A DNA stretch of 64,000 bases from an uncultured Ignavibacteria bacterium (GTDB lineage: Bacteria > Zixibacteria > MSB-5A5 > WJJR01): contig CAZQIZ010000009.1 of assembly GCA_964593585.1 (NCBI GenBank), positions 306 through 64,305 of the forward strand. The letters run 5' to 3'. Positions 19,242 to 35,731 of this stretch are shown piece after piece. The stretch's first letter is position 1; every line of letters begins with the position of its first letter. The position numbers and the translations under genes were made by a program. The notes beneath the pieces are model-generated. The model made no database searches, was not told the origin of the DNA, and saw only the letters and a program-made list of their open reading frames with translations.

Positions 19242-20915
19242 ATGCGCACAATCCTCGCCCTTCTGGCCGCGACGCTGGTCGCCGCGTCCGTCCGCGCCGA
19301 GGTCCCGACCGGAATCACCATCCAGGGCCGACTCACCGACGCCGCCGGCGTGCCGCTTCCCGCCGGCAACAAGGACTTCACGTTCAAAATCTTCGATGCC
19401 GCCGTCGGGGGCACCGAAGTCTGGCCCGGCGGGGCAGGGGAGGATCAGGTCATCGCCAGCGACGCCGACGGACTCTGGTCGGCCACCCTCGGCGCAATTC
19501 TTCCGGTTACCGGCGAGGCCTTCCAGGATTCGGCGCGCTGGCTGCAGATCACCGTGGAGGGCACCACGCTGCCGCGCGTGCGCCTCCAATCGACTCCCTA
19601 TGCCATCCGTCTCGAATCCATCGACCGCGCCTACGGCGGCACGATCCAAAGCCCGGTGGCCATCGGCCCCGGTCACACCAACAGCGGTCCCATGGGCTTC
19701 GTCGCCGGCGCAGACAATGCCGTGACCGCCGAGGCCGGCTCCATCTCCGGCGGCCGCTACAACGAAGCCACCGGAGTCGGCGCCACCGTCGGCGGCGGTG
19801 TCTTCAATCGCGCGCGCGGCGACTATTCTGTCATCGCCGGCGGCGGTGCCGATGGCATCGACTCGAATCTTGCCGCAGGCAATTGGTCGACCATTTCCGG
19901 CGGATTCCGGAACACAACTCGGGCCCCGTATGCCACCGTCGGCGGCGGCATCGGACACACCGTGGATAATCTGGCCTCCTATGGTGTCATCGCCGGTGGC
20001 GGCTTCAGCACGGCCGAGGGATTCTTTTCCGCCATCGGCGGCGGATGGGCCAATCGGGCCGCTGGACCGTACTCCACCGTGACCGGCGGCTCCTTCAACC
20101 GCGCCTACGGCTACGGCGCGGTCGTCCATGGCGGCTCGGGATCTCCCGCCGATTCGAACGTGGCCCGCGGCAATTTCTCCATGGTCCTCGGCGGAACGCG
20201 AAACCTCGCCAATGGCAACTGGTCGCTGGCCGCCGGCCATCGCGCCCGCGCACAACACACTGCCTCCTTCGTCTGGGCTGACAGCACCAGCGCCGATTTC
20301 TTCTCCACCGGCCCCAGTCAGTTCCTCATCCGCGCCCGCGGCGGCGTCGGCATCGGCACCAACCAGCCGCAGACCGCCACCGGCGGACAGGTCCTGCACA
20401 TCCTCAACCCCGTCGGCCCCTCCGTGCTGCGTCTCGATGACGGAGAATTCAATGGCATCCAGTGGGAGATCCAGTCCACCGTCTACGGGGGCATCGGCAC
20501 GCTCAACTTCAGTAACATTACCGCCTTTACCAATCCGTTCCAGTTCTATGCCACCGGCGACTTCCATGCCTCCGGCAACATCTGCGCCGCCAACCACGCC
20601 TGCCCCTCCGATGCGCGTCTCAAGGAGGACGTCCGGCCCATCGCCGGCGCCCTCGAACGCGTCCGGCAGTTGCGCGGTATCGAATACCGCTGGACGGAAG
20701 CGGCGCAACGCGACCGCCATCTGCCCGCCGACCGGCAGATCGGCCTCCTCGCCCAAGATGTCCGCGCCATCGCCCCGCAGGCCGTGATCGAGCAATCCGA
20801 TGGCACGCTCGCTGTTGACTACGCGCGACTCGTGCCCCTCTTGATCGAAGCAGTGAAAACTCGACAGCAGCAAATCGAATCACTGAATACCCGGTTGGAG
20901 CAACTCATTCCGTAG
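19242..20915 (+). CDS. Fibre-like surface protein paralog A: signal peptide, conserved N-terminal domain, Gly/Asn/Ala 14-residue repeats, C-terminal Peptidase-S74-like intramolecular chaperone domain
   Basis: ATG with AAGGAGA RBS. N-terminus EVPTGITIQGRLTDAAGVPLPAGNKDFTFKIFDAAVGG...WLQITVEGTTLPRVRLQSTPYA is homologous to the N-termini of the six downstream genes. C-terminus CPSDARLKEDVRPI...QIGLLAQDVRAIAPQAV...LAVDYARLVPLLIEAVK matches the SDxRLKxNI / IAQEV / LIEAIKEL pattern of phage tail-spike and endosialidase chaperone domains. Confidence 0.8.
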   Translation: MRTILALLAATLVAASVRAEVPTGITIQGRLTDAAGVPLPAGNKDFTFKIFDAAVGGTEVWPGGAGEDQVIASDADGLWSATLGAILPVTGEAFQDSARWLQITVEGTTLPRVRLQSTPYAIRLESIDRAYGGTIQSPVAIGPGHTNSGPMGFVAGADNAVTAEAGSISGGRYNEATGVGATVGGGVFNRARGDYSVIAGGGADGIDSNLAAGNWSTISGGFRNTTRAPYATVGGGIGHTVDNLASYGVIAGGGFSTAEGFFSAIGGGWANRAAGPYSTVTGGSFNRAYGYGAVVHGGSGSPADSNVARGNFSMVLGGTRNLANGNWSLAAGHRARAQHTASFVWADSTSADFFSTGPSQFLIRARGGVGIGTNQPQTATGGQVLHILNPVGPSVLRLDDGEFNGIQWEIQSTVYGGIGTLNFSNITAFTNPFQFYATGDFHASGNICAANHACPSDARLKEDVRPIAGALERVRQLRGIEYRWTEAAQRDRHLPADRQIGLLAQDVRAIAPQAVIEQSDGTLAVDYARLVPLLIEAVKTRQQQIESLNTRLEQLIP

Positions 20916-20926
20916 GAGGCCTTGTC

Positions 20927-23494
20927 ATGCGCTGCCTGACCCTTCTTGCTGTCATCGTCCTGGCGTGGAGCGCCACCGTTCAGGCCGCCGTTCCCGCCAG
21001 CATCACCGTGCAGGGCAAACTGACCGATCTGTCCGGCAATCCGCTGCCCGCCGGATCGAAGAACTTCGTTTTCAAGATTTACGATGCCCCCACGCTGGGC
21101 AATGAGATCTGGCCCAACGGAGCAGGGGAGAACCAGTCGCTGACCAGCGACGCCGCCGGTCTCTGGATCGGACTGGTCGGCGCGGTGGTACCGCTGACCG
21201 ACGCAGTCTTCAGCGACAGTGTTCGCTGGCTGGAGATTAACGTCGACGGCACGACGCTGCCGCGCGTGCGACTGGCGACCGGCCCCTATGCGCACCGTGT
21301 CGCGACCGTGGATGGTGCATCCGGCGGCTCGATCACCACCAAGGTCTCCATCGGTCCCGGGCATCTCAACAGCGGTGCGCACGCCTTCGTCACCGGGATC
21401 GGAAACACGACTACCGGCGATACATCGACGATTGCAGGCGGCGCGCGAAATGTGGTCGGCGGACCCGGCGCAGCGATTCTCGGCGGCGTGGATCAGACGG
21501 TGTCTGGTGGTTTCTCGGCAATCGCCGGCGGACAGAACAACACCGCCGCCGGTGTCGCGAATTTCATTGGAGGCGGTTCGGGAAATCATACGGAGAACAA
21601 CAACTCCGTTATCGCCGGCGGACGAGACAATGCCGCCACCGGTTTCGGCGCCACGGTCAGCGGCGGCATCAACGACACCGCCCTTGGTCCGGCAACGACC
21701 GTGGCCGGAGGCGCCTTCAACTCCGCCCGGGCCGACTACGGCGCCGTCTCCGGCGGAGTGCAGAACGCAGCCGTGGGGCAATGGGCGTACGTGGGCGGCG
21801 GATGGAAGGATTCCGCCCTCGCACGCGGTGCCACGGTCTCCGGCGGCGAGACCAATGTTGCCTCAGGAAACTGGTCGACAATCGGCGGTGGCGCCACCAA
21901 CGCCGCGCCCGGACAGGGCGCCACGGTGGCCGGCGGTGGCGGCAATCTCGCCATCGGCGCCAACTCGGTCGTCGGCGGCGGCGAACTGAATCGCGCCGGA
22001 GCCGTCGCATCCACAATCGCCGGTGGTTACGACAGTGACGCGGACAGCAGCTACACCGCCATCGGCGGCGGATACCAAAACCGCGCCCGCGCCGGATACG
22101 GCGCCATCTCAGGCGGGCGCGCCAATCTGATTGACTACAAAGGACTCTTCGGCACTATCGGCGGCGGCCTGTCGAATCGCGCCGGCGGTCCCGGTGCGAC
22201 AGTCGCTGGCGGCCGCAACTGCTTTGCCGATACCAACGGCACCGTCGGCGGCGGATATGCCGACAGCGCCACCGGGAACGGCGCCTTCGTCGGCGGAGGG
22301 TTTTACAACACCGCCGCCACCTTTCAATCCGCCATCGTTGGGGGGTACTATAATCGTGCCTTCGGCTACTCCTCGTTCATCGGTGGCGGCGGCTTCAACA
22401 AGGCGTATGGCTGGTACTCCGTCATCGGCGGCGGTGGCGGCACAAGCGTGGTCGACTCGAACGCGGCCATCGGCGACTACTCGTTTATCGGCGGCGGCTC
22501 CACGAACACCGCCAGCGGCGATTACACCACCCTTTCCGGTGGGCAACGCAATCGGGCCGCGGCGGTCGGCGGCACCATCGGCGGCGGTTACGACAACTAC
22601 ACCCAAGGGGTCATGGCAACCGTCGGTGGGGGCCAAGGCGACAGCGCGCTGGGCAACTATTCCACAATCCCCGGCGGGCAGCTGAATCGCGCCGCAGGAG
22701 ACAATTCCTTTGCCGCAGGATTCCTCGCCCGAGCCAATCACGACGGAACGTTTGTCTGGGCCGACGGCATCGGCGCCTCCTTCACCTCGACGGGCGCCAA
22801 TCAGTTCCTCGTCCGCGCTGGGGGCGGCGTCGGCATCAATACCTCGCAACCGGAAACTCCGCTGCATGTGCTGAGGGGGTCGACTCCCGTTTCGGGAACC
22901 GCCTGGCCATACGCCATCGCCAACTTCGAACATGCCGACAACGGGTACATCTCCATCACCACCCCGGATGTGAATGAGCGCGGCATCCTCTTCGCCGACG
23001 CCTCCTCCAACGTCGACGGTGCGATCATCTACAACTCAAGCATCGCCGGCGTGCCCGATGGATTCCAATTCCGCACATCGGGAAACCAGGCCCGGGTCAA
23101 CTTCTACTCCAACGGCGATGTCCTCGCTGTCGGCAATATTACCGCCTGGGGCAATGTCTGCGCCTTCAACGGCGGCGCATGCGTCTCTGACGGACGTCTG
23201 AAAACTGATGTCGCGCCGCTGACCAATGCCCTGGATGCTGTCGAACGGCTCCGTGGCGTCAGATACCAATGGAAACACGATGCCATACCCGACCATCCGA
23301 TGGCTCGGGGCGAGCAGATCGGTCTCATCGCGCAGGAAGTTAGAGAGATCATCCCTCAGGCTGTCACCGAGACGCGCGAGGGCTACCTCGCCGTTGACTA
23401 CGCGCGTCTGGTCCCGTTGCTCATCGAAGCGCTCAAGGAGCAACAACGCCAGATCGACGAACTGAAATCCGAACGGCGCGCCTCGACACCCTGA
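20927..23494 (+). CDS. Fibre-like surface protein paralog B (855 aa), with S74-like C-terminal chaperone domain
   Basis: AGGAGG RBS and ATG 11 nt after the paralog A stop. Signal peptide MRCLTLLAVIVLAWSATVQA. Conserved N-domain AVPASITVQGKLTDLSGNPLPAGSKNFVFKIYDAPTLGNEIWPNGAGENQSLTSDAAGLW...LPRVRLATGPYAHRV. About 45 repeats of the x-x-x-T/S-V-x-G-G-x-x-N-x-A-x-G type (YadA-head/Hep_Hag-like). C-terminus SDGRLKTDVAPL...IGLIAQEVREIIPQAV...LIEALKEQQRQIDELK. Confidence 0.85.
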   Translation: MRCLTLLAVIVLAWSATVQAAVPASITVQGKLTDLSGNPLPAGSKNFVFKIYDAPTLGNEIWPNGAGENQSLTSDAAGLWIGLVGAVVPLTDAVFSDSVRWLEINVDGTTLPRVRLATGPYAHRVATVDGASGGSITTKVSIGPGHLNSGAHAFVTGIGNTTTGDTSTIAGGARNVVGGPGAAILGGVDQTVSGGFSAIAGGQNNTAAGVANFIGGGSGNHTENNNSVIAGGRDNAATGFGATVSGGINDTALGPATTVAGGAFNSARADYGAVSGGVQNAAVGQWAYVGGGWKDSALARGATVSGGETNVASGNWSTIGGGATNAAPGQGATVAGGGGNLAIGANSVVGGGELNRAGAVASTIAGGYDSDADSSYTAIGGGYQNRARAGYGAISGGRANLIDYKGLFGTIGGGLSNRAGGPGATVAGGRNCFADTNGTVGGGYADSATGNGAFVGGGFYNTAATFQSAIVGGYYNRAFGYSSFIGGGGFNKAYGWYSVIGGGGGTSVVDSNAAIGDYSFIGGGSTNTASGDYTTLSGGQRNRAAAVGGTIGGGYDNYTQGVMATVGGGQGDSALGNYSTIPGGQLNRAAGDNSFAAGFLARANHDGTFVWADGIGASFTSTGANQFLVRAGGGVGINTSQPETPLHVLRGSTPVSGTAWPYAIANFEHADNGYISITTPDVNERGILFADASSNVDGAIIYNSSIAGVPDGFQFRTSGNQARVNFYSNGDVLAVGNITAWGNVCAFNGGACVSDGRLKTDVAPLTNALDAVERLRGVRYQWKHDAIPDHPMARGEQIGLIAQEVREIIPQAVTETREGYLAVDYARLVPLLIEALKEQQRQIDELKSERRASTP

Positions 23495-23583
23495 CGTCAG
23501 CGCGCCGACAATACCGAACGCGGTGTTTGTCCCAGTTGGACACCGATTCACCTCTCATCGCTGGAGCTTTGGTGGAGGACCTC

Positions 23584-25623
23584 ATGATTCGACGTGCCAT
23601 TGCGAGGATCTCGTTGGTGTGCGCCGCTGCCCTCACCGCGTACGCCGCTGTGCCCGCCAGCATCACCGTGCAGGGCAAACTGACCGATGTGTCCGGCAAT
23701 CCGCTGCCGGCCGGATCGAAGAACTTCGTTTTCAAGATTTACGATGCCCCCACGCTGGGCAATGAGATCTGGCCCAACGGGGCAGGGGAAAATCAGTCGC
23801 TGACCAGCGACGCATCCGGCCTCTGGATCGGCCTGGTCGGCGCGGTGGTACCGCTGACCGACGCGGTCTTCAGGGACACGGTTCGTTGGTTGGAAGTCAC
23901 CGTCGACGGGACTACGCTGCCGCGCGTGCGACTGGTCACGGGCCCCTATGCGCACCGTGCCGCGACCGTGGATGGCGCTTCCGGCGGTGCAATCATCGGT
24001 TCGCTGTCGGTCGGTTTGAACAATGCCGCCACCGGTTTCGAGACTTTCGCCGCCGGACGTGCAAACACCGCCAGCGGGCATTACTCTGCTGTCGATGGAG
24101 GCCTCGATAATGCGGCCATCGCGACTTACTCCGTCGTCGGCGGAGGCTGGAAAGACACCGCCTCTGGCTGGGCTTCCGTCGTCGATGGCGGCGAGTTAAA
24201 TCGCGCCTATGGTCTCTGGTCGACAGTGGGAGGGGGAGGCAGTAACCAGGCCATTGATCAGGGAACAACAATCGCAGGCGGCGGCAGCAGTATCGCGCGG
24301 GGGCTCAACGCTACAATCGGCGGAGGCGCGAACAACCTGACCGATGCGCCATTTGCAACACTGTCCGGCGGCGAATACAATGCCGCGCGCGGCACGCATG
24401 CGACAATCGGAGGCGGCAGGGGAAATTTGACGTATGGGCAATTTTCCACCATCGCCGGGGGCGGGGGCGGCCTCCCGCAAGACTCCAACTCCGCGCGCGG
24501 CGATTACTCAGTCGTCGTCGCCGGACGTCGAAACCATGCTTCTGGTTTTGAATCAACCATAGGAGGCGGCACAACCAATCGGGCCGCGGGCTCGGGCTCC
24601 ACCATCCCCGGCGGCAGCTGCAATAGCGCCGTCGGCGCAAACAGCTTTGCCGCGGGCGTTGGCGCAAAGTCGAACCACCCCGGCAGTTTCGTGTGGAACA
24701 GCGCGAGCAGTTGCGCCGACAGCTTCGCCTCTACGGCCGCGAATCAATTCCTCGTTCGTGCAGCCGGCGGTGTCGGCGTCAACACCGCAAGCCCGAATCG
24801 AACCTTGACCGTCATTGGGGACATGGGAGTAAGCGGCCCGGTCGGGATCGGGACGACCAACCCCAACAAGACACTCACCGTCGATGGCGACATGGAAATC
24901 GGCGTGGCGTCTGGCGACTATCATCACATGCGCATCGGCGGCGGCAATTCATCCGGTTTCCTCTATGGCAGTTACGCGCGTTATGGTGACGGCATTCACA
25001 TGGGCTATAACTACCACGCCAACGCGGCCGGAAATCCTGTCGTGATCGCGGCCGGAGGAGGGACAAGCCGCTTGTCGCTCGGGTACGGATGGATGGCGGG
25101 GTACATCGGCGGGACAGGCGCTGAGCCGACAACCCGATCCTTCTATGTCGAACCCAACGGCAACTTCCGGGTGGACGAGGCGCTGCTTGTCGACGGTACG
25201 GGCAATTTCTACAACGGCATGTACATCTGGAATGGCCTGAGTCTGCAAAGTGGCAACATGATACTCTACGGAGACATCTGGAGAGGCGGTTGTTACGCGA
25301 ACTTCACGTGTCCCTCTGACCTGCGCTTGAAGAAAAACGTCAAGCCGCTCGCCGATCCCATTGGCAATATCCGGCGATTGCATGGTGTGCGATTCGACTG
25401 GCGACGTGAGGAATTTCCCGATCGCGAATTCCCGGAAGACAATCAGATCGGGCTGATTGCGCAGGAAGTTCTTGAGGTTGCTCCGACGGCGGTCACCAGG
25501 CACACGGACGGCTACATGAGTGTCGACTACGCCAAACTCGTGCCGCTCCTCATCGAGGGTATGAAGGAACAGCAGAAGCGGATCGAGAAACTGGAGGAGA
25601 CCATTCGGCGAATGCAGCCGTAA
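23584..25623 (+). CDS. Fibre-like surface protein paralog C (~680 aa), with S74-like C-terminal chaperone domain
   Basis: ATG 23584 after GGTGGAGGA; the ORF-track TTG start at 23527 is less likely. Signal peptide MIRRAIARISLVCAAALTAYA. N-domain ~95% identical to paralog B at nucleotide level. C-terminus CPSDLRLKKNVKPL...IGLIAQEVLEVAPTAV...LIEGMKEQQKRIEKLEE. Confidence 0.85.
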   Translation: MIRRAIARISLVCAAALTAYAAVPASITVQGKLTDVSGNPLPAGSKNFVFKIYDAPTLGNEIWPNGAGENQSLTSDASGLWIGLVGAVVPLTDAVFRDTVRWLEVTVDGTTLPRVRLVTGPYAHRAATVDGASGGAIIGSLSVGLNNAATGFETFAAGRANTASGHYSAVDGGLDNAAIATYSVVGGGWKDTASGWASVVDGGELNRAYGLWSTVGGGGSNQAIDQGTTIAGGGSSIARGLNATIGGGANNLTDAPFATLSGGEYNAARGTHATIGGGRGNLTYGQFSTIAGGGGGLPQDSNSARGDYSVVVAGRRNHASGFESTIGGGTTNRAAGSGSTIPGGSCNSAVGANSFAAGVGAKSNHPGSFVWNSASSCADSFASTAANQFLVRAAGGVGVNTASPNRTLTVIGDMGVSGPVGIGTTNPNKTLTVDGDMEIGVASGDYHHMRIGGGNSSGFLYGSYARYGDGIHMGYNYHANAAGNPVVIAAGGGTSRLSLGYGWMAGYIGGTGAEPTTRSFYVEPNGNFRVDEALLVDGTGNFYNGMYIWNGLSLQSGNMILYGDIWRGGCYANFTCPSDLRLKKNVKPLADPIGNIRRLHGVRFDWRREEFPDREFPEDNQIGLIAQEVLEVAPTAVTRHTDGYMSVDYAKLVPLLIEGMKEQQKRIEKLEETIRRMQP

Positions 25624-25756
25624 TCACGGCCATCTCGCCTGAACCAACCGTGACCTTCTGCCAGCTCTTGCCCGCGCTCGGAAGCGAAGTGTGCCGTGCG
25701 CCCGCCGACTTTCCCCGGCGAATGAGGTTGAATTTCCTCCCTCTTTTGGCCGAGCT

Positions 25757-25770
25757 GGACTATATTAATC
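25757..25770 (+). promoter_or_regulatory. Conserved GGACTATATTA motif (-10-like TATATT) 66 nt upstream of the paralog D start
   Basis: The same CAGACTATATTAC motif lies 70 nt upstream of the paralog E start (28711-28725). AT-rich hexamer in an otherwise GC-rich intergenic region. Confidence 0.25.
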
Positions 25771-25835
25771 CCGATTTCCGTCTCGGACGGACGCAGTCTG
25801 CCCGTTTACCGCTGTCTGCCAATTTGGAGGACCTT

Positions 25836-28586
25836 ATGACCCGAAGTGCCATTGCGGGGATCTTGCTGGTGTGTGCCGCTGCCCTCACCGCGTACGCCGC
25901 CGTGCCCACCAGCATCACCGTGCAGGGAAAACTCACCGACGCCGGCGGCAACCCGCTCTCCGCCGGTCCGAAGAATTTCACATTCAAGATCTTTGACGCC
26001 TCTGTCGGCGGCGGCCAATTCTGGCCCGATGCCGGTGGCGAGAATCAAGTCATCACCACCGCCACCGATGGCACCTGGGTGGGTCTGGTCGGCGCGGTGA
26101 TCCCGATCCTGCTTGATGCCTTCGCCGACACATCACGCTGGCTGGAGATCACTGTCGACGGCATCACTCTGCCGCGCGTCCGCCTCGTGACCGGTCCCTA
26201 CGCGTACCGTGTCGGCACCGTCGACGGCGCCTCCGGCGGCACCATCACGAGCAAAGTGGCAATTGGCGAAGGGCACTTCAACGTCGGCTTCCACACATTC
26301 GTCGCCGGATTCGACAACAACGTCGACGGCGATTTCACGAGCGTGACGGGCGGCCGGAGCAATTCGGCCACCGGACAATTCTCGCACATCAGCGGCGGCG
26401 AAAATGACACGGCCAGTGGCAATCACTCAACCGTCGGCGGCGGCTTGCACAACCGGGCCACGCAATTGGAAACGACCATCGGCGGCGGACGCGACAATCT
26501 GGCCTCAGGCTTCGCCGCCACCATTGCGGGCGGCCGGGAGAATCAGGCGACGGCCACGGAGGCGACGGTCGGTGGCGGGCAACTCAATATCGCCGGCGGC
26601 AGCAACGCCACCATCGGTGGCGGTCAGGAAAACACCGCCACCGCTTTTGCCGCCACGATTGCCGGTGGCTATCAAAACAACGCGAGCGGAGGGCAGTCGG
26701 TGATCGGCGGGGGAGAAGGAAATATTGCCGCGGGGCTGTACTCGTCTGTCCTGAGCGGATTTGAGAATCGCAGCACGGCGGAGGGAGCAGTGATCGCGGG
26801 GGGCGCCGCCAACCGGGCGTCCGGCATCTATTCCTTTGTCGGCGGAGGCGGAGGAGCGTTGCCGGATTCCAATGCCGCTTCGGGCTCCTGGTCGAGTGTG
26901 GTCGGTGGCAGCCATAACGTCGCAAGCGGTCTGACGGCCTTTGTCGGGGGCGGTTCCGGCAATATTGCCAAGTCCGGAAGTGCCGCCATCGTCGGCGGAC
27001 AGAACAACCGCGCCGATACCGGCAGCACCTTCATCGGCGGCGGACGTGACAACCACGTCGATCAGGTGGATGCGGTCATCGGCGGCGGTTGGATGAACGA
27101 GGCATTGGGCAATACATCCGCGATTCTGGGCGGACGGAGCAATGTGGCCTCCGGCGCCGGCAGCGCCATCGTCGGCGGCGTTACCAACCGCGCACGCGGG
27201 GCGTTCTCATTTGTCGGAGGCGGCGGCGGAACCACCGCCACCGATTCCAATCTCGCGTTGGGAGACCTGTCCACAATCGCCGGCGGACGCGCCAATCTCG
27301 CGACCGGAGCATACAGCGTTGTCGGTGGCGGACAGAATAACGCCGCCACCCAGTTGGAAGCCAACGTCGGCGGAGGCAATGGCAACCGAGCCACCGGCAT
27401 TGCTTCAACAGTGGCCGGCGGACGGTCCGACACCGCCGCCGGGAGTTTTTCCACTGTCGGCGGTGGAATCCGCAATCGCGCCAATGACTACGCCACCGTC
27501 GCGGGCGGGATGGAAAACCGCGCCATCGGTAATTACGCAACCATTGGCGGTGGAAATCGCAACTTCGCTGAATTCGCCAGCACCATTGCCGGCGGACAAT
27601 TCAACACGGCGTCAGCCACCAATGGCGCCAGCATCGTGGGGGGCGTGCAAAACACGGCCGATGGTAGCTTCTCGTTTATCGGCGGTGGGTACCACAACCA
27701 GACCTACGGCGACTTGTCAACCATCGGCGGTGGAGGCGGAAGCAGCGACATCGACTCCAACGTTACGCGCGGATTGTGCGCCACCATCCCCGGCGGACGC
27801 CGCAACCGCGCCAACGGCAGCTTCTCCTTCGCCGCCGGACGACGCGCGCATGCCTTGCACCACGGCACTTTTGTCTGGGCCGATTCCACCGAAGCCGATT
27901 TCGTCTCGACCGCGCAGGACCAGTTCCTCATCCGCGCCTCCGGCGGTGTCGGCATCGGCACCAACGCGCCGGAAGGCCCCTGGCATGTGCAGAAGGGCAG
28001 CGCGGGCGCCGTCACCGCCAACAGCAACTCCATCGCCGTCTTTGAGACCAGCGCAAGCAATGGCTGGCTCTCCATCCTCGGCCCCGACAACGCGGAGCGC
28101 GGATTGCTGTTCACCGAACCGTCGAGCGCGGTGGCCGGGGCCATCGTCTTCGATCAGGGCGGCGGCGGAGATGACATCGGCTTCCGGACCGGAGGTAACG
28201 TTACGCGCATGACCCTTGATGCGTCTGGGAACCTCACGGTGTCAGGTTGTGTCGACGGCAACAACACGGCCTGTGCCTCCGATGAGCGATTCAAGACAAA
28301 CATCGCCACGGTCGATGACGCGCTGGCGCTTGTCGGGCGGCTGCGGGGTGTCCGGTACGAATGGCGCCGTGAGGAGTTCCCCGATCACTCCTTCGACGCC
28401 GGCGCACAGTACGGGGTCATTGCTCAGGAGGTCCGCGAAGTTCTGCCCGAGGTTGTCCGCGAGCGCGCCGATGGCTACCTCTCCGTCGAGTACAATGCGT
28501 TGATCCCGCTGCTGATCGAAGGCATGAAGGAGCAGCAACGCCAGATCGACGAGCTGAAGGCGGCGCTGCGCGCTCTCACCCCGTAG
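25836..28586 (+). CDS. Fibre-like surface protein paralog D (~916 aa), with S74-like C-terminal chaperone domain
   Basis: ATG 25836 after GGAGGA; the ORF-track start at 25650 lacks an RBS. Signal peptide MTRSAIAGILLVCAAALTAYA. Conserved N-domain. Very long Gly/Asn/Ala repeat region. C-terminus CASDERFKTNIATV...YGVIAQEVREVLPEVV...LIEGMKEQQRQIDELKAALRALTP. Confidence 0.85.
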   Translation: MTRSAIAGILLVCAAALTAYAAVPTSITVQGKLTDAGGNPLSAGPKNFTFKIFDASVGGGQFWPDAGGENQVITTATDGTWVGLVGAVIPILLDAFADTSRWLEITVDGITLPRVRLVTGPYAYRVGTVDGASGGTITSKVAIGEGHFNVGFHTFVAGFDNNVDGDFTSVTGGRSNSATGQFSHISGGENDTASGNHSTVGGGLHNRATQLETTIGGGRDNLASGFAATIAGGRENQATATEATVGGGQLNIAGGSNATIGGGQENTATAFAATIAGGYQNNASGGQSVIGGGEGNIAAGLYSSVLSGFENRSTAEGAVIAGGAANRASGIYSFVGGGGGALPDSNAASGSWSSVVGGSHNVASGLTAFVGGGSGNIAKSGSAAIVGGQNNRADTGSTFIGGGRDNHVDQVDAVIGGGWMNEALGNTSAILGGRSNVASGAGSAIVGGVTNRARGAFSFVGGGGGTTATDSNLALGDLSTIAGGRANLATGAYSVVGGGQNNAATQLEANVGGGNGNRATGIASTVAGGRSDTAAGSFSTVGGGIRNRANDYATVAGGMENRAIGNYATIGGGNRNFAEFASTIAGGQFNTASATNGASIVGGVQNTADGSFSFIGGGYHNQTYGDLSTIGGGGGSSDIDSNVTRGLCATIPGGRRNRANGSFSFAAGRRAHALHHGTFVWADSTEADFVSTAQDQFLIRASGGVGIGTNAPEGPWHVQKGSAGAVTANSNSIAVFETSASNGWLSILGPDNAERGLLFTEPSSAVAGAIVFDQGGGGDDIGFRTGGNVTRMTLDASGNLTVSGCVDGNNTACASDERFKTNIATVDDALALVGRLRGVRYEWRREEFPDHSFDAGAQYGVIAQEVREVLPEVVRERADGYLSVEYNALIPLLIEGMKEQQRQIDELKAALRALTP

Positions 28587-28600
28587 AAATCTGACACGGC

Positions 28601-28651: not shown

Positions 28652-28710
28652 CGCCAGTCCGGTTTGAACCCCGGAATCGGGCCGAAATCCCTCTCCTACT
28701 TCTTTCAGAT

Positions 28711-28725
28711 CAGACTATATTACTC
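28711..28725 (+). promoter_or_regulatory. Conserved CAGACTATATTAC motif (-10-like) 70 nt upstream of the paralog E start
   Basis: Matches the motif upstream of paralog D. Confidence 0.25.
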
Positions 28726-28794: not shown

Positions 28795-31302
28795 ATGACT
28801 CGCCGTATCATGACGGGAGTTCTCCTGCTGTTGGCTTTATCCACTACGGCGCACGCCGCCGTCCCGACCAGCATCACCGTGCAGGGCAAACTGACCGATT
28901 TGTCCGGCAACCCGCTGCCCGCCGGATCGAAGAATTTCACCTTCAAGATTTTCGATTCCCCCACGCTCGGCAATGAAATCTGGCCCAATGGGGCAGGGGA
29001 GAATCAGTCGCTGACCAGCGACGCCGCCGGTCTCTGGATCGGACTGGTCGGCGCGGTGGCACCGCTGACCGATGCGGTCTTCAGCGACACGGTTCGCTGG
29101 CTGGAAATCACCGTCGATGGGACCACGCTGCCGCGCGTGCGGCTTGTGACCGGGCCCTATGCCTACCGGGTATCGACGATCGACGGCGCCTCCGGCGGCA
29201 GGATCACCTCGAAGGTCACGATTGGCCTGTCCAACGCGAACACCGGCAACGACGGGTTTGTCGCCGGAACGGATAATCAGGCGCTCGCCAACTACACGGT
29301 CATCGGCGGCGGCGTACTGAACACCGCCACCGGCGAATCGAGCGTCGTGTCAGGCGGTCAGCAGAACGACGCGACCGGCTTCGCCGCCAGTGTCGCAGGT
29401 GGAGCGAACAACACCGCGTCCAACACACACGCGACCGTTGGCGGCGGATTGACGAATATGTCATCCGGCCTCCACTCCGTTATCGATGGCGGAATCTACA
29501 ATTTTGCGACGAGTACGGGATCCGTCGTTGGCGGCGGCGCCAACAATAACGCGCGCGGCCAGTATTCCACCGTCGCCGGCGGCGGGCCGGCCCTGACGGA
29601 CTCCAACACGGCCGGCGGCGACTTCTCGCGCATCGGCGGCGGCTTCGGCAATGTGGCGTCGGGGCACGCCAGCAGCATCGATGGCGGCCACTACAACATC
29701 GCGTCCGGGCTCTACAGCACGATCGGAGGCGGTCAATTCAACGCCGCCCAGGGCACGTTCTCGACGATCGCCGGCGGTGGAATCGCAAACATCTTCAATG
29801 GCCAGAACATCGCCGAGGGTTACGCGACGGTGATCGGCGGGGGCTCCGCGAACCGTGCCGTGCACAACTATTCAACGATCGGCGGCGGATTGAACGGACA
29901 GACACGGGGCGCATACTCCACGCTCGCCGGGGGATACAGCAATCTGACGGACGGCGACAATGCCACCGTGGGAGGCGGCGATCGCAACGCCGCCGCGGGG
30001 ACCGGCGCCACGGTGAGCGGCGGCACGCTTAACTACACAAACGCGATCGGTGCGGTTGTCGCCGGCGGCGACACCAATTCCGCGCAGGGCTTCTTTGCGG
30101 TCGTGGGCGGCGGCATCCTCAATGACGCCCCCGGCCACGAAAGCGTGGTCGAAGGGGGACGTGACAACACGGCCTCCGGCGATCTCGCCACCGTGGGCGG
30201 CGGCGCCTACAACACCGCATCGGGCGCCGGCTCGCACATCTCCGGTGGGTTCAATAATACGGCTGTCGGCGAACGCTCGACTATTGGTGGGGGAGAGCAG
30301 AACCGTGCCTATGGCAGTTTTGCCACTGTTTGTGGCGGCGGCGGCGGACTCCCAGTCGACTCGAATTCCGCCGCCGGCAATTTCTCATTCGTCGGTGGCG
30401 GGAGCCGCAACTCCGCCAGCGGCCCCGGCGCCGTCATCGCAGGCGGCGACTCAAACCGCTCCAAGGGCCAGAACTCAACGGTGGGCGGCGGCGGGTTCAA
30501 TGTCGCTGGCGGCACCAATGCAACAGTTCCGGGCGGCCTCGCGAACGAAGCCAATGCCCCCTTCACTTTTCCCGCCGGGTCGTTCGCGCACGCGAACCAT
30601 GCCGGGAGCTTCGTCTGGGCGGACCACAATTTTCTCGACTCATTCTACACGACTGCCACCAACCAGTTCATCATCCGTGCCAGCAGCGGCGTCGGCATCG
30701 GCACGAACACCCCGCAGCAGCTCCTCAGTGTCGCTCAGGGAATGAATATCGATCAGGCCAATGCGAACGATGGCGCACTTTGGAACGGCCTGAGCTTCGG
30801 CTCCACAAGCGGCGAAGGCATTGCTTCGAAACGTACCGCCGGCGGCAATCAGTATGGATTGGACTTCTACACCAACTCAATCAACCGTGTTAGCATTGCG
30901 AACGCGACCGGGTATGTTGGCTTCGGACTGACCAATCCATCCTATCGGATCGACCTGCCGAACGTCGCGAATGCCGCCGGCCAGGGCCGCGCGAATGCGT
31001 GGACGACGTATAGTTCACGCCGCTGGAAGACGAATATCACGACACTGTCCCACGCGGTCGACAAGGTCCGTCAACTCCGCGGCGTTGAATACGACAACGC
31101 CGCCGACAACCGCCACGCCATCGGGCTGATCGCCGAGGAAGTCGGCGCCGTCATCCCGGAAGTCGTGCAATACGAAGCCAATGGTGTCGATGCCGCCGCG
31201 CTGGACTATGGTCGTCTGGTTGCCGTGCTGATCGAGGCCATCAAGGAACAGCAGCGCCAGATCGATTTGCTCAATCGCAAACTGGAACGGATCACGCCTT
31301 AA
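28795..31302 (+). CDS. Fibre-like surface protein paralog E (835 aa), with S74-like C-terminal chaperone domain
   Basis: AGGAGG RBS. Signal peptide MTRRIMTGVLLLLALSTTAHA. N-domain nucleotide sequence ~100% identical to paralogs F and G over ~270 bp. C-terminus SSRRWKTNITTL...IGLIAEEVGAVIPEVV...LIEAIKEQQRQIDLLNRKLERITP. Confidence 0.85.
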   Translation: MTRRIMTGVLLLLALSTTAHAAVPTSITVQGKLTDLSGNPLPAGSKNFTFKIFDSPTLGNEIWPNGAGENQSLTSDAAGLWIGLVGAVAPLTDAVFSDTVRWLEITVDGTTLPRVRLVTGPYAYRVSTIDGASGGRITSKVTIGLSNANTGNDGFVAGTDNQALANYTVIGGGVLNTATGESSVVSGGQQNDATGFAASVAGGANNTASNTHATVGGGLTNMSSGLHSVIDGGIYNFATSTGSVVGGGANNNARGQYSTVAGGGPALTDSNTAGGDFSRIGGGFGNVASGHASSIDGGHYNIASGLYSTIGGGQFNAAQGTFSTIAGGGIANIFNGQNIAEGYATVIGGGSANRAVHNYSTIGGGLNGQTRGAYSTLAGGYSNLTDGDNATVGGGDRNAAAGTGATVSGGTLNYTNAIGAVVAGGDTNSAQGFFAVVGGGILNDAPGHESVVEGGRDNTASGDLATVGGGAYNTASGAGSHISGGFNNTAVGERSTIGGGEQNRAYGSFATVCGGGGGLPVDSNSAAGNFSFVGGGSRNSASGPGAVIAGGDSNRSKGQNSTVGGGGFNVAGGTNATVPGGLANEANAPFTFPAGSFAHANHAGSFVWADHNFLDSFYTTATNQFIIRASSGVGIGTNTPQQLLSVAQGMNIDQANANDGALWNGLSFGSTSGEGIASKRTAGGNQYGLDFYTNSINRVSIANATGYVGFGLTNPSYRIDLPNVANAAGQGRANAWTTYSSRRWKTNITTLSHAVDKVRQLRGVEYDNAADNRHAIGLIAEEVGAVIPEVVQYEANGVDAAALDYGRLVAVLIEAIKEQQRQIDLLNRKLERITP

Positions 31303-31313
31303 GGAGCGCTCTT

Positions 31314-33587
31314 ATGCGACAACTCACGCTCGGACTGCTCGCCTTGCTGCTGGCCACGACGCCCCTTCACGCCGCCGTCCCGGCCAGCATCACCGTGCAG
31401 GGCAAACTGACCGATCTGTCCGGCAACCCGCTGCCCGCCGGATCGAAGAATTTCACCTTCAAGATTTTCGATTCCCCCACGCTCGGCAATGAAATCTGGC
31501 CCAATGGGGCAGGGGAGAATCAGTCGCTGACCAGCGACGCCGCCGGTCTCTGGATCGGACTGGTCGGCGCGGTGGCACCGCTGACCGATGCCGTCTTCAG
31601 CGACACGGTTCGCTGGCTGGAAATCACCGTCGATGGCACGACCCTGCCGCGGGTGCGCCTGGTAACAGGGCCCTATGCGCATCGTGTCGCCACCGTCGAT
31701 GGCGCATCGGGCGGCACGATCACCAGCAAGGTCTCCATCGGTCCGGGTCACATCAACACGGGCACCCACGCCTTCGTCGCCGGCTCCTACAACGTCGGAA
31801 CGGGCAATTACTCGACCATTGCCGGCGGTGAAACCAACACCGCCTCCGGCGACCGCGGCAGTGTCGGCGGCGGCGCGCAGAATCACGCCGAAGGATTCGG
31901 TTCCACTGTTGACGGCGGCTGGTACGGCCACGCCTGGGGCAACTTTGCCGTGATCGGCGGCGGCGGCGGGATCTTCGATATGGATTCTAACAGCGCCGGC
32001 AACTGGGGCGTGGTGGCCGGCGGGCACATGAACCATGCGATCGGCGAAGGCGCGGTCGTCGGTGGCGGCGCGCGCAATCGCGCCCGCGGCGAATACTCCG
32101 TCATTGCCGGCGGCGGCGGCTTCACCGATGCCGATTCGAATGTCGCCTCCGGCTCCCACGCCGTCATCGGTGGCGGCACCGGCAACACTGCCTCCGGATT
32201 CCACAGTCTGATCGGCGTCGGACGCTCCAATCTCGCCAGCGGCTATCACGCCGCCATCCTCAGCGGCGCCATCAACGTGGCCGGCGGACAGTACGGCGTC
32301 GTGGCGGGCGGGTACGACAACCACGCCATCGGCTGGATGTGCTCGATTGTCGGCGGCGCCAGCAATCGCGCCGACAACAACAACTCCTTTGTGGGAGGCG
32401 GGGAATACAATGAGGCCACCGGCTCACATGCCGTCATCGGCGGCGGCCAGAGCAATCAGGCCCTCGGTGATTACTCCGTCATCGCCGGCGGCGGCAATAC
32501 CAGCGCCGACTCCAACCGCGCGCAGGGGGCATACTCGGCCATCGGCGGCGGAAACCTCAACCTCGCCATGGCTGACTACGCCGTCACCTGCGGCGGCCTG
32601 AAAAACGGCGCCTGGGGATATGGCAGCGGCGTCGCCTCCGGATACCTCAACGAAGCGGAGGGAACGTACTCGTTCATCGGGGGCGGCAACAACAACCTCA
32701 TCCTCTACGCGCGCTCCTTCATCGGCGGCGGCGAGGGCGGCCAGGTGAGCGGCCAGCACTCCGTCATCGCCGGCGGCAACGGCAATTACGTCGGCTCCGA
32801 TGTAGCCTCCATCGTCGGCGGCACACGCAACATGATCAACTTCACCAACTCGGGCGGTTCCTTCATCGGCGGCGGCTGGGAAAACTATGTCGATGGTTTC
32901 GACGCGGTTGTCGGCGGCGGATTCCATGATTCCGCCTCCGGCAATCAGGCGGCGGTCTGTGGCGGCCACACCAACCACGCCGCCGGAAACCTCTCGTTCG
33001 TCGGCGGGGGGGACTTCAACCGCGCCACCGGCGACTGGGCCTGCATCCCCGGCGGCGGCTCGAACGCCGCCGCGGGCCAGTTCGCCTTCGCCGCGGGACG
33101 TCAGGCCAAGGCCAATCACAGCGGCGCCTACGTCTGGTCCGACAACAACCCCTTCGACTTCGCCTCGCTGGCCAATAACAGTTTCTCGGCGCGCTGCCTC
33201 GGCGGCGCGCGCTTCGTGACCGCCATCAGCGCCGGCGGCGTCCCCACACAGGGCGTGACTCTGGCCGCCGGCGGCGGATCGTGGGCGGGGATCTGCGACA
33301 GCGCCGTCAAGGAGAACATTCGCGACGTCGACGGCGCCGAAATCCTCCGCCAACTCGCCGCCCTGCGCATCGCCGAGTGGAATTACATCGCCCAGGATGA
33401 CAGCGTCCGTCACCTCGGGCCCATGGCGCAGGACTTCCGACGCGCCTTCGGCATCGGCGAAGACGATCGCCACATCACCCAGGTCGACGCCGATGGCGTC
33501 GCGCTGGCCGCCATTCAGGAGCTCATCCGCCGCATCGAAATGCTGGAAGGCGAGCTCGCGCGGCTCCGCGCACGGAATGGCGATTGA
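31314..33587 (+). CDS. Fibre-like surface protein paralog F (757 aa), with a divergent S74-like C-terminal domain
   Basis: AAGGAG RBS, ATG 11 nt after the paralog E stop. N-domain identical to paralog G over ~370 bp. Divergent C-terminus CDSAVKENIRDVDGAEILRQL...LGPMAQDFRRAFGIG...LAAIQELIRRIEMLEGELARL retains the K-x-N-I and A-Q-x-x / I-x-E-L pattern. Confidence 0.8.
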   Translation: MRQLTLGLLALLLATTPLHAAVPASITVQGKLTDLSGNPLPAGSKNFTFKIFDSPTLGNEIWPNGAGENQSLTSDAAGLWIGLVGAVAPLTDAVFSDTVRWLEITVDGTTLPRVRLVTGPYAHRVATVDGASGGTITSKVSIGPGHINTGTHAFVAGSYNVGTGNYSTIAGGETNTASGDRGSVGGGAQNHAEGFGSTVDGGWYGHAWGNFAVIGGGGGIFDMDSNSAGNWGVVAGGHMNHAIGEGAVVGGGARNRARGEYSVIAGGGGFTDADSNVASGSHAVIGGGTGNTASGFHSLIGVGRSNLASGYHAAILSGAINVAGGQYGVVAGGYDNHAIGWMCSIVGGASNRADNNNSFVGGGEYNEATGSHAVIGGGQSNQALGDYSVIAGGGNTSADSNRAQGAYSAIGGGNLNLAMADYAVTCGGLKNGAWGYGSGVASGYLNEAEGTYSFIGGGNNNLILYARSFIGGGEGGQVSGQHSVIAGGNGNYVGSDVASIVGGTRNMINFTNSGGSFIGGGWENYVDGFDAVVGGGFHDSASGNQAAVCGGHTNHAAGNLSFVGGGDFNRATGDWACIPGGGSNAAAGQFAFAAGRQAKANHSGAYVWSDNNPFDFASLANNSFSARCLGGARFVTAISAGGVPTQGVTLAAGGGSWAGICDSAVKENIRDVDGAEILRQLAALRIAEWNYIAQDDSVRHLGPMAQDFRRAFGIGEDDRHITQVDADGVALAAIQELIRRIEMLEGELARLRARNGD

Positions 33588-33640
33588 TGAAATCGGAGTT
33601 TTTGCTCGCCCGTATCTGGGCGGATTGACAGGAGGTCCCG

Positions 33641-35731
33641 ATGCGATTCACCATCCGATTGTCACTCATCGTGCTCTTGCTGTTGCCGTCACTGGCGCAC
33701 GCCGCCGCCCCGACCAGCATCACCGTGCAGGGCAAACTGACCGATCTGTCCGGCAACCCGCTGCCCGCCGGATCGAAGAATTTCACCTTCAAGATTTTCG
33801 ATTCCCCCACGCTCGGCAATGAAATCTGGCCCAATGGGGCAGGGGAGAATCAGTCGCTGACCAGCGACGCCGCCGGTCTCTGGATCGGACTGGTCGGCGC
33901 GGTGGCACCGCTGACCGATGCCGTCTTCAGCGACACGGTTCGCTGGCTGGAAATCACCGTCGATGGCACGACCCTGCCGCGGGTGCGCCTGGTAACAGGG
34001 CCCTATGCGCATCGTGTCGCCACCGTCGATGGCGCATCGGGCGGAACCATCACCAGCAAAGTGTCCATCGGCCCCGGCCACACGAACACTGGCAACCATG
34101 CCTTCGTAGCTGGAGAAGGCAATGCGGCGTCCGGGCACTACGCCACCGTCAGCGGCGGCATCGGCCACAACGCCGGCGGTGAGAACGCTGTGGTGGGCGG
34201 CGGCGCTTACAACCGCGCCGATGGTCTCTCGTCCGTCGTGGCCGGCGGCTACGCCAACGCCGCGCTCAACACCGACGCGGTTGTCGTCGGCGGCTACGCC
34301 GATTCCGCCCTTGGCTATCGCTCCTTTATCGGCGGCGGCGCCGACAACAACACCAGCGCCGATGCCAGCAGCGTCGTCGGCGGCACCGCCAACCTCGCCG
34401 GCGGCGGCGGATCGTTCATCGGCGGCGGCATCGGCAACAAGACCGCTGGCTTCGATGCCGTCGTGGCCGGCGGCGCGACCAATGTCGCTTCCGGGTCACG
34501 CTCGTTCGTGGGCGCCGGGCAGAGCGATTCCGCGCTCGGAGCGCGCTCCGCCGTCGTCGCCGGACAACTCAATTCCGCCTACGGCTCTCAATCCTTCATC
34601 GGCGCCGGCGGCAGCAACCGTGCCGGCAACTCCGCCGCCGTCGTCGCCGGAAGCGCCAGCGAAGCCACCGGCAACGCCGCCTTCATTGGCGCCGGCACCC
34701 TCAACGAGGCGTCGGGACTGTACGCGGTCATCGGCGGCGGCTCCCAGAACATTGCCACGCACTACGGCGCCGTGGTGGTCGGCGGCGAGAACAACGATGC
34801 CGACTCGACGCTCACGTTTGTCGGCGGCGGCGTTCACAACATCGCCCGCGGTAACCTCTCTGCGGTGGTCGGCGGCAGCAGCAATCAGGCGCTGGCACCC
34901 AACGCCTTCGTCGGCGGCGGCGCCAATAATGTTGCCTCCAACTTCTACAGTGTCGTCGCCGGCGGATTCTACGATTCGGCCAGTGGAGGAAACGCCGTTG
35001 TCGGCGGCGGCTACTTCAATCTCGCCGAAGGTTCCGTGTCAACCATTGCCGGCGGCAGTTATGGACGCGCCCGTGGCGGTTTCTCCTTCATCGGCGGCGG
35101 TGGATTCTTCGGCGATGCCGACTCCAATTACACGCACGGCACCGGCTCCGCCGTCGTCGGCGGCGCCCGCAACGGCGCGCTCGGCGACTACGCCGTCGTG
35201 CCCGGCGGATATGGCAATCGCGCCGTCGGTAGCCACTCCATGGCGGCGGGCGAAAACGCCTCCGCCGACCACGATCACTCCTTCGTCTGGAATGACAACT
35301 CGGCGGGCGCGTTCGCCTCGACCGCCGCCAGTCAATTCGCGATTTCTGCCGCCAATGGACTGCGGCTGGCGCGCGCCGCCGGCGACGCCAAGGCGATTGT
35401 GCCGGGTGATCACTACCGCGACAACGGCATCATCGCCTGGGCCAAAGTCGCCGGCAGCAGCGGCGCCATCGGCACCAATGAGTTCGGCGTCGTGTCCGTT
35501 GTACGCAATTCCACCGGGTACTACACCATCACCCTCGACGCCTCCGCGAGCGTCTCCACGACACTTATTCCGGTGGTCACGGCGCTGGTCGACCGCGCGC
35601 CGACCGATCCCTCGTTCGCCCGGCTGATCTATGCCCAGCAGGTTGGCATCAACTCGTTCAGCGTCTATGTCACCGATGGCAACTACGCCGCCGCCGACAC
35701 CGATTTCACCTTCCTGGTGACCGCACGATAA
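33641..35731 (+). CDS. Fibre-like surface protein paralog G (696 aa), lacking the S74-like chaperone domain and ending in a different C-terminal domain
   Basis: AGGAGG RBS. Signal peptide MRFTIRLSLIVLLLLPSLAHA. Conserved N-domain. Gly/Asn/Ala/Val repeats. C-terminal ~150 aa (GIIAWAKVAGSSGAIGTNEFGVVSVVRNSTGYYTITLDASASV...) has no SDxRLK or LIEAxKE motifs. Confidence 0.8.
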   Translation: MRFTIRLSLIVLLLLPSLAHAAAPTSITVQGKLTDLSGNPLPAGSKNFTFKIFDSPTLGNEIWPNGAGENQSLTSDAAGLWIGLVGAVAPLTDAVFSDTVRWLEITVDGTTLPRVRLVTGPYAHRVATVDGASGGTITSKVSIGPGHTNTGNHAFVAGEGNAASGHYATVSGGIGHNAGGENAVVGGGAYNRADGLSSVVAGGYANAALNTDAVVVGGYADSALGYRSFIGGGADNNTSADASSVVGGTANLAGGGGSFIGGGIGNKTAGFDAVVAGGATNVASGSRSFVGAGQSDSALGARSAVVAGQLNSAYGSQSFIGAGGSNRAGNSAAVVAGSASEATGNAAFIGAGTLNEASGLYAVIGGGSQNIATHYGAVVVGGENNDADSTLTFVGGGVHNIARGNLSAVVGGSSNQALAPNAFVGGGANNVASNFYSVVAGGFYDSASGGNAVVGGGYFNLAEGSVSTIAGGSYGRARGGFSFIGGGGFFGDADSNYTHGTGSAVVGGARNGALGDYAVVPGGYGNRAVGSHSMAAGENASADHDHSFVWNDNSAGAFASTAASQFAISAANGLRLARAAGDAKAIVPGDHYRDNGIIAWAKVAGSSGAIGTNEFGVVSVVRNSTGYYTITLDASASVSTTLIPVVTALVDRAPTDPSFARLIYAQQVGINSFSVYVTDGNYAAADTDFTFLVTAR

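Follow-up and report, generated by a model that had tools for sequence, protein, structure and literature searches.

A tandem array of seven fiber genes

The stretch of DNA analyzed here (the window; 64,000 nucleotides (nt) with a G+C content of 64%) stems from the genome of an uncultured bacterium that was deposited as Ignavibacteria and is placed in the Zixibacteria by GTDB (assembly GCA_964593585.1, contig CAZQIZ010000009.1, positions 306 to 64,305). Between positions 19242 and 35731 it carries an array of seven consecutive open reading frames (ORFs), all on the forward strand and arranged head to tail: G1 (19242–20915), G2 (20927–23494), G3 (23584–25623), G4 (25836–28586), G5 (28795–31302), G6 (31314–33587), and G7 (33641–35731). 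After correction of two start codons, their products comprise 557, 855, 679, 916, 835, 757, and 696 amino acids (aa), respectively. A ribosome-binding site (RBS) of the AGGAG or GGAGG type lies 5–8 nt ahead of the ATG of every gene. A preliminary description of the locus had listed the same seven genes and had attributed an RBS of its own to each of them, which proved correct, but it had placed two starts too far upstream. G3 begins at the ATG at 23584 (679 aa, preceded by the RBS GGAGGA) instead of the TTG at 23527, and G4 at the ATG at 25836 (916 aa, also with GGAGGA ahead) instead of the GTG at 25650, which would yield 978 aa. The shorter versions are favored because a typical signal peptide directly follows these ATG codons and because the RBS fits. 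The 916-aa product of G4 is 100% identical to a public protein (P0164), and the ortholog of G3 (P0006; 93% identical) likewise has 679 aa. Public gene calls for G3 and G4 vary by pipeline (695 and 954 aa at JGI; 916 aa for G4 at NCBI and in Logan; 679 aa for the G3 ortholog at NCBI), and in-frame TTG, GTG, and ATG codons upstream lengthen both ORFs (23527–23583 and 25650–25835). For G5, the public gene calls begin at Met6 of the window version.

Each of the seven proteins starts with a Sec-type signal peptide for signal peptidase I (SPase-I), 19–21 residues long and ending in A-x-A (19242–19298 in G1, 20927–20986 in G2); these peptides were called by inspection of the basic n-region, the hydrophobic core, and the cleavage motif, which reads A-x-A before and [AE][VA]P after the cut. 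A domain of 118 aa, hereafter the N-domain, directly follows in all of them (19299–19652 in G1, 20987–21340 in G2, 23647–24000 in G3, 25899–26252 in G4, 28858–29211 in G5, 31374–31727 in G6, and 33704–34057 in G7), with 56–98% identity between the copies. AlphaFold2 (AF2) predicts a beta sandwich for this domain, with values of the predicted local distance difference test (pLDDT) above 90 across residues 1–100. The ratio of non-synonymous to synonymous substitution rates (dN/dS) of the N-domain is 0.12–0.5. In G6 and G7, the segments coding for the N-domain share 98.6% nucleotide identity, whereas the remainders of these two genes diverge.

Beyond the N-domain extends a shaft of 12 (G1) to 35 (G4) repeat units, which mostly have 14–16 residues and follow the pattern [VIF]-x-G-G-x-x-N-x-A-x-G-x-x-[ST]. 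It comprises about 12 turns in G1 (19653–20267), and the beta-rolls of the other proteins have about 31 turns in G2 (21341–22750), 15 in G3 (24001–24687), 35 in G4 (26253–27869), 30 in G5 (29212–30609), 28–30 in G6 (31728–33128), and 27 in G7 (34058–35281). At approximately 0.48 nm per turn, we estimate that such beta-rolls of 12–35 turns would be roughly 6–17 nm long. A profile search against the PDB matched the shaft to the head of the Moraxella adhesin UspA1 (3pr7) with E-values of 2e-22 for G2 and 5e-21 for G7, and the alignment takes in the terminal cap motif SFAAG..AN.D of that head. G2 also matches 6f45 (E 2e-7). In the window proteins the shaft ends in a conserved cap, ..SFAAG..H.G.FVWAD, with variants of the form [FY]VW[ANS][DS]. 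The Pfam family LbR_Ice_bind reached only sub-threshold scores on the shaft (17–22.5 bits, cut-off 30), and Pfam YadA_head matched none of the seven window proteins.

The cap is followed by a second conserved motif, 'F.ST..NQFLIRA.GGVGIGT..P...LHV', which occurs twice in G3. G1 to G5 possess the sequence GGVGI[GN]TxxP...L[HT]V C-terminal to the shaft, and the versions in G6 and G7 are degenerate. The tip region past this capping motif (55–209 aa) is the most variable part of the proteins; the median identity between copies is 23% in the tip preceding the C-terminal domain as compared to 34% in the shaft. Together with the capping motif the tip occupies positions 20268–20606 in G1; further tips lie at 22751–23185 (G2), 27870–28277 (G4), and 30610–31011 (G5), the tip of G3 is long and contains two capping motifs of the type VGxxTxxPxxTLTV (24688–25314), and that of G6 is short (33129–33293).

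At the C-terminus, G1 to G6 carry the chaperone domain Peptidase_S74 (PF13884) with scores of 36.1–63.7 bits, above the gathering score of 22. It is encoded at 20607–20912 in G1 (S456-D-A-R-L-K; Pfam E 4e-16), 23186–23491 in G2 (S754; E 2e-17), 25315–25620 in G3 (S578), 28278–28583 in G4 (S815), 31012–31299 in G5 (S740-S-R-R-W-K), and, in a divergent form, 33294–33584 in G6 (E 8e-9). The Ser-x4-Lys dyad is canonical in five of the seven proteins (SDARLK in G1, SDGRLK in G2, SDLRLK in G3, SDERFK in G4, and SSRRWK in G5). In G6 the corresponding sequence is C-D-S-A-V-K, with Cys661 (codon 33294–33296) at the position that is held by the catalytic Ser in G1 to G5 and in characterized S74 proteins; this domain also carries a mid-domain insertion. 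It may represent a natural variant with a Cys nucleophile or a chaperone that does not cleave. The Pfam scan found no PF13884 match in G7, which instead ends in a linker and a beta-rich C-terminal tip of about 100 aa (35282–35728; final residues ..TDFTFLVTAR), and a tip of this type is also C-terminal in 10 other members of the N-domain family. The C-terminal 100–450 residues of G1 to G5 match tail-fiber families of phages in the PHROG database, with E-values down to 7e-34. Neither a YadA_anchor nor any other membrane barrel domain was detected by Pfam in any of the seven proteins.

Much of this architecture had been anticipated in the preliminary description. The signal peptides (here assigned to the SPase-I type), the conserved N-terminal domain, and the YadA-head-like central repeats are all borne out. 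An S74 C-terminus, which had been ascribed to every copy, is present in G1 to G6, although with Cys in place of Ser in G6, and is lacking in G7; the profile searches that had been proposed as a check returned S74 in six proteins and the UspA1 head, but no S74 in G7. The notion that variability is confined to the middle of the proteins could not be upheld, as everything past the N-domain diverges and the stretch preceding S74 does so most.

Distribution of the N-domain

An exhaustive hidden Markov model (HMM) search with the N-domain recovered 31,312 clusters (50% identity) at E ≤ 1e-3 and 6,465 at E ≤ 1e-10. These counts come from the exhaustive search of representatives; a word-indexed search with the N-domain alone gave 5–16 short fragments. 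Among the best 150 hits the domain starts at residue ~2–50, mostly 20–30, that is, at the N-terminus after a signal peptide; typically it spans approximately residues 22–140. The C-termini of the family are mosaic: besides S74 and the G7-type tip, at least three further endings recur, and coiled coils, TIG, H-lectin, phage collar, and beta-propeller regions occur as well. Single relatives match Pfam YadA_head and UspA1_rep, and NCBI labels the relatives either 'tail fiber domain-containing protein' or 'hypothetical protein.'

Of the relatives assigned to genomes, the closest are encoded in metagenome-assembled genomes (MAGs) of Candidatus Zixiibacteriota, with up to 71% identity in the N-domain, and more distant ones in MAGs of Ignavibacteria, Acidobacteriota, Chloroflexia, and Saganbacteria. 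Two to four N-domain genes in tandem were present in eight of the loci examined, from MAGs of Zixibacteria, Ignavibacteria, and Saganbacteria. In two relatives of approximately 1,540 aa (P0100 and P0149), the N-domain occurs three times in tandem, ahead of beta-propeller and LIC10067-like regions; it can thus be repeated within one protein and combined with non-fiber modules.

Relation to mosaic adhesive trimer fibers

Fibers of this design are not a new concept, but match the superfamily of the mosaic adhesive trimers (MATs), which has been known since 2024 from the predator Bdellovibrio bacteriovorus HD100 (Caulton et al., 2024; PMC10769870). HD100 has 21 MAT surface fibers, 13 of which end in S74 with the motif SDxxxK and 8 in other tip domains; their N-domain has no homolog in the PDB and was proposed to dock on the predator surface, self-cleavage of S74 was demonstrated for Bd3182, and the tips bind prey glycans and were swapped in evolution (Caulton et al., 2024). 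MAT proteins were also listed in Oligoflexia, the PVC group, Micavibrio, Bradymonadaceae, Myxococcales, several bacteria of the FCB group, and Omnitrophica (supplementary table in PMC10769870). The window proteins share with them the order of a signal peptide, a conserved beta-rich N-domain (~120–130 aa) that lacks a PDB homolog, a long fiber, and a C-terminus that is either S74 with SDxxxK or another, swapped tip domain. In both cases several genes make up a repertoire in which the tips are mosaic, both contain the capping-loop motif 'GxVGIGTxxPxxxLHV,' and some of the HD100 genes are adjacent too, judging from the consecutive locus numbers bd0704/0705 and bd3266/3267 (PMC10769870).

Profile comparisons indirectly suggest a link between the N-domains as well. 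The sole NCBIfam match, obtained for all seven window proteins, is NF053851 (Bdello_MAT_N, mosaic adhesive trimer family chimeric fiber protein), with 15–21 bits against a cut-off of 60; by the NCBI threshold, the window proteins are thus outside the Bdellovibrio MAT subfamily. Among 74 distant members of the N-domain family, 59 match NF053851 in collinear partial pieces, and P0100 and P0149 are the only relatives that exceed its cut-off. In P0100 (88.7 bits for the whole protein), residues 327–431 match the profile of the window N-domain (i-E 5e-12) and residues 327–394 form the best Bdello_MAT_N stretch. Since the latter range falls inside the former, both profiles match the same residues. 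The window N-domain is therefore regarded here as a likely distant homolog of the MAT N-domain. A profile built from the tip plus S74 (A7) aligned with Bd2133 (8OND; E 0.0017) over three stretches that lie on the capping-loop repeats 'G.VGIGT..P...LHV,' and it also matched Bd3182 (8OJN; E 0.024), the phage long tail fiber 6f45 (E 1e-15), and eukaryotic MyRF (E 6e-9). The ICA domain of MyRF (7DC3) resembles the window proteins in its S74-type self-cleaving trimerization domain and the preceding capping motif 'GRVGINTDRPDEALVV'; MyRF is, however, a membrane-bound transcription factor that has this module alone in common with them.

In several respects the two sets of fibers differ. The window N-domain would form a distant branch, and the shaft is a regular beta-roll of the UspA1/YadA-head type, whereas that of the Bdellovibrio MATs consists of intertwined beta-prisms (Caulton et al., 2024; PMC10769870). 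The window proteins are shorter (557–916 aa compared to ~1,000 aa), their genes form one seven-gene tandem array, whereas those of HD100 are mostly dispersed, and they belong to an uncultured, probably Zixibacteria-related host that is not known to be predatory. What distinguishes the locus is thus the shaft of the type found in the heads of trimeric autotransporter adhesins (TAAs), the distant N-domain, the unusual size of the tandem array, and the traces of past recombination.

Taken together, the locus probably encodes a repertoire of seven MAT-like cell-surface fibers. A number of points weigh against this interpretation. The match to NF053851 spans only profile positions 2–45 and includes the signal peptide, so that the homology to the Bdellovibrio N-domain is indirect, and the shafts of the two groups may differ. 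The predicted model of the G7 tip has low confidence (pLDDT 58). To our knowledge, Zixibacteria are not known as predators. Finally, self-cleavage, surface display, and ligand binding of the window proteins are all inferred, as is trimerization, for which homology to S74 and to the UspA1 head speaks.

Diversification and constancy of the array

The nearest genome, the MAG GCA_035559435.1, has flanking genes that are 88–93% identical at the nucleotide level to those of the window, but a different set of fiber genes. There, the beta-propeller gene is directly followed by the counterparts of G3 (93% aa identity) and G4 (76% aa identity, 89 residues shorter), a gene for a 767-aa protein without ortholog in the window (X), and a gene whose product is 68% identical to G5 (Y). 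The counterparts of G1 and G2 (72 and 81% aa identity, respectively) occur as a pair on another contig of this MAG, where they adjoin gatB. According to sliding-window identities, the region upstream of G5 and its first ~400 bp are X-like (79–90%, as compared to 39–58% with Y), whereas from approximately position 29195 onward the gene is Y-like (71–85%, as compared to 41–54% with X). This switch of the best match indicates a crossover at the boundary of N-domain and shaft, near 29050–29200. The crossover in G5, along with the near-identical N-domains of G6 and G7, indicates that the conserved 5' module serves as a homology block by which shafts and tips are re-assorted. The evolution of the repertoire can be followed in part: genes are gained, lost, or relocated, shaft turns are gained or lost, and recombination takes place at the boundary of N-domain and shaft.

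Compared to GCA_035559435.1, the window contains two extra segments. The first (11962–16481) holds genes for secreted proteins of the FG-GAP (12050–13699) and MopE/TSP3 (13993–16365) types, and the second (17924–23573) an fn3 gene together with G1 and G2. The whole neighborhood of secreted proteins, beyond the fiber array alone, hence appears to be fluid.

Across samples the locus is essentially constant. It was recovered at 99.97–100% identity in three independent metagenome assemblies, namely on a 94-kb contig of JGI 3300037501 that covers 22.5 kb of the locus, on a 32-kb contig of JGI 3300043267 (12.9 kb), and on a Logan contig from SRR12686701 (5 kb). The window departs from the JGI contigs in six substitutions only, which are paired at the first and third positions of single N-domain codons (28957/28959 in G5 codon 55, 31563/31565 in G6 codon 84, and 33893/33895 in G7 codon 85). 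They could reflect micro gene conversion between the paralogs or consensus cross-talk during assembly. The 5' regions of the array genes share 69–96% DNA identity with each other but are never identical, and their remainders do not cross-match. A partial mis-assembly of the array, which the preliminary description had considered possible, is rejected, because three assemblies reproduce the locus and because no two 5' regions are identical.

Spacers and candidate transcription signals

The spacers within the array alternate between short ones of 11 nt (G1–G2 and G5–G6) or 53 nt (G6–G7) and longer ones of 89, 212, and 208 nt. As the start of G2 lies only 11 nt past G1, the two genes are probably co-transcribed. 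A block of about 60 nt is common to the G3–G4 and G4–G5 spacers and contains the sequence GACTATATTA, located at 25758–25767 (forward strand), 78 nt upstream of the G4 start, and at 28713–28722, 82 nt upstream of the G5 start. These two matches, compared to 0.17 expected, are the only ones in the 64-kb window. The sequence is a possible promoter or regulatory element. Two structures on the forward strand are candidate terminators: an imperfect 29-nt inverted repeat directly past the G4 stop codon (28587–28665), which would divide the array into units, and a GC-rich hairpin, GGGCCGGCA-GTTG-TGCCGGCCC, 13 nt past the G7 stop (35744–35765), which would close it. Consensus scans for promoters and terminators scored no better than shuffled sequences, and neither tRNA genes nor Rfam signals were detected. 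Owing to the alternation of short and long spacers, the hairpins after G4 and G7, and the block common to two spacers, the array probably comprises several transcription units.

Genomic context

The array is flanked by chromosomal genes, many of them for secreted proteins. DUF4153, FG-GAP, MopE/TSP3, beta-propeller, and fn3 proteins are encoded upstream, and downstream follow genes for M16 and M14 peptidases, a GNAT protein, a solute-binding protein, a flavoprotein, TPR proteins, helicases, RecN, and a desaturase. Three large ORFs of the window have no match in Pfam or PHROG (36–3335, forward strand, 1099 aa; 39900–41921, forward strand, 673 aa; 52535–54547, reverse strand, 670 aa).

A small phage-like island begins at 59298 and runs through the end of the window at 64000 for approximately another 4 kb (7612–16383 of locus L029). 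Situated between genes for a DEAD-box helicase and a photolyase, it consists of about 11 small forward-strand genes without Pfam match. One of its ORFs (61687–62790) matches phrog_3922, a family of major head proteins (E 7e-56), and marginally Pfam Phage_capsid_4, and another (59298–60080) matches phrog_16951; no tail genes were recognized within the island. Possible interpretations are the remnant of a cryptic prophage, a satellite, or an element resembling a gene transfer agent (GTA). The island starts about 24 kb past the array and its head-protein gene lies about 26 kb past it, with housekeeping genes in between.

Alternative explanations

The array proteins could also be tail fibers or receptor-binding proteins of a prophage, a tailocin, or a GTA-like particle whose other genes reside elsewhere, for instance in the island at ~59–68 kb. 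The tail-fiber PHROG matches in the C-terminal parts of G1 to G5, the NCBI name of their relatives, and the head-protein gene within its cluster of unannotated genes would fit this idea, and some GTAs encode fibers apart from their main cluster. Phage fibers and tailspikes such as the endosialidase of K1F (3GW6), the L-shaped fiber of T5 (4UW8), the distal subunit of a long tail fiber (6F45), and the neck appendage of GA-1 (3GUD) indeed share with the window proteins the Ser-Lys dyad of S74 and a preceding beta-helical stalk. However, phage and tailocin particles assemble in the cytoplasm, whereas all seven window proteins have cleavable Sec signal peptides and carry a non-phage N-domain where a virion-attachment domain would be; this domain had no match in PHROG, and tblastn found it neither in 50,697 phage genomes nor in IMG/VR. 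G7 moreover lacks S74, G6 has Cys at the catalytic position, housekeeping genes fill the approximately 24 kb between array and island, the chromosomal array adjoins no gene for a tail, a baseplate, or an integrase, and in the related MAG the fiber genes adjoin gatB and the DUF4153 and propeller genes. We thus consider an origin from such particles very unlikely. That the array is encoded by the bacterium and is no prophage tail module had already been proposed in the preliminary description, and the chromosomal flanks and the absence of the N-domain from the phage collections agree with this. Its statement that tail, baseplate, and capsid genes are missing is accurate for the immediate neighborhood, but a capsid-like gene is present in the window at 61.7 kb. 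Membership in the TAAs (type Vc secretion) is a further alternative. The shaft shares with the left-handed parallel beta-roll heads of Moraxella UspA1 (3PR7/3NTN) and Yersinia YadA the 14–16-residue GGxxNxAxG repeats and the SFAAG..AN.D terminus, and single relatives match YadA_head and UspA1_rep, so that TAAs with an unusual C-terminus might be envisaged. Yet the window proteins have no neck, no coiled-coil stalk, and neither a YadA_anchor barrel nor another C-terminal membrane anchor; their anchoring end is N-terminal, and they would mature through S74. Their C-terminus, a soluble tip or an S74 chaperone of the kind that other families remove by cleavage, implies an orientation opposite to that of a TAA with its distal head and C-terminal anchor. 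For lack of the membrane anchor, membership in the TAAs was rejected, and we regard this explanation as extremely improbable.

A programmed system of antigenic or phase variation, or a phage decoy, in which single copies are expressed or dedicated shuffling serves to escape recognition, had been suggested in the preliminary description, and it would agree with the tandem layout, the conserved 5' ends followed by divergent remainders, the recombination at the N-domain boundary of G5, and the 5' homogenization of G6 and G7. The array contains no silent cassettes, however, because each copy is a complete gene that has an RBS, a signal peptide, and a stop codon of its own. Inverted repeats around intergenic promoter regions, and thus invertible promoters, were not found, nor were invertons or Rfam hits; PADLOC gave no hit and known defense families were absent, and neither a recombinase nor a reverse transcriptase was present among the ~34 larger ORFs, a part of those in the window, that were scanned with Pfam. 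Three samples have the same sequence apart from the six paired N-domain substitutions, and the differences from the related genome resemble ordinary evolutionary recombination rather than on-going switching. These results do not support a variation or decoy role, which we consider unlikely. Highly improbable, in our view, is a function as ice-binding or other non-adhesive beta-roll coat proteins, at which the weak LbR_Ice_bind hits and a match to the Lolium ice-recrystallization inhibitor (3ult, E 4e-6) might hint. The Pfam hits are sub-threshold and are explained by the common beta-roll periodicity of 14–15 residues, the UspA1 head matches about 16 orders of magnitude better (2e-22 compared to 4e-6), and S74 chaperones, capping loops, and variable tips are features of fibers and adhesins.

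Proposed mechanism and biological meaning

If the seven proteins are MAT-like surface fibers, they could function as follows. While domain content, motifs, context, and evolution are read from sequence and profile evidence, the individual steps of this model are inferred from what is established for S74 proteins and MATs. The proteins would be exported through Sec, and S74 would nucleate trimerization from the C-terminus and then cleave itself off at its Ser, thereby exposing the stretch that precedes it as the distal, ligand-binding tip. The invariant N-domain would hold each fiber on a common element of the producer's surface. Seven shafts of differing length and seven tips could in this manner display different binding specificities, with glycans or envelope structures, borne by other cells or by particles, as the probable ligands. 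On the DNA level, the segment coding for the N-domain acts as a homology block, where recombination or gene conversion re-pairs 5' ends with other shafts and tips. Such fibers might serve predation by prey capture, as in Bdellovibrio, attachment to partners or particles, general adhesion, or biofilm formation.

MAT fibers, with which a single predator recognizes its prey, were described in 2024, and the same design is found here in a distant, uncultured lineage, in what is the largest tandem array among the loci seen in this analysis. The comparison with the sister genome provides a concrete picture of how such a repertoire diversifies: a crossover took place between anchor and shaft, shaft turns were lost, and two genes moved as a pair. 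Furthermore, the locus offers defined targets in the anchor partner of the N-domain, the natural Ser-to-Cys variant of S74, and the seven tips. As tens of thousands of clusters match the N-domain profile, phage-like self-maturing fibers on a common N-terminal anchor may be widespread. A more far-reaching idea, which we put forward only tentatively and consider rather doubtful, is that the N-domain marks a very large and essentially unstudied surface-fiber display system of diderm bacteria, spanning Zixibacteria, Ignavibacteria, Acidobacteriota, Chloroflexota, Saganbacteria, and the Bdellovibrio MATs. A common anchor, working with a partner for outer-membrane export and docking, would then carry interchangeable phage-derived shafts and tips, arrays would make new fibers by recombination between anchor and shaft, and in Zixibacteria-like organisms the repertoire could point to an unrecognized predatory or epibiotic lifestyle.

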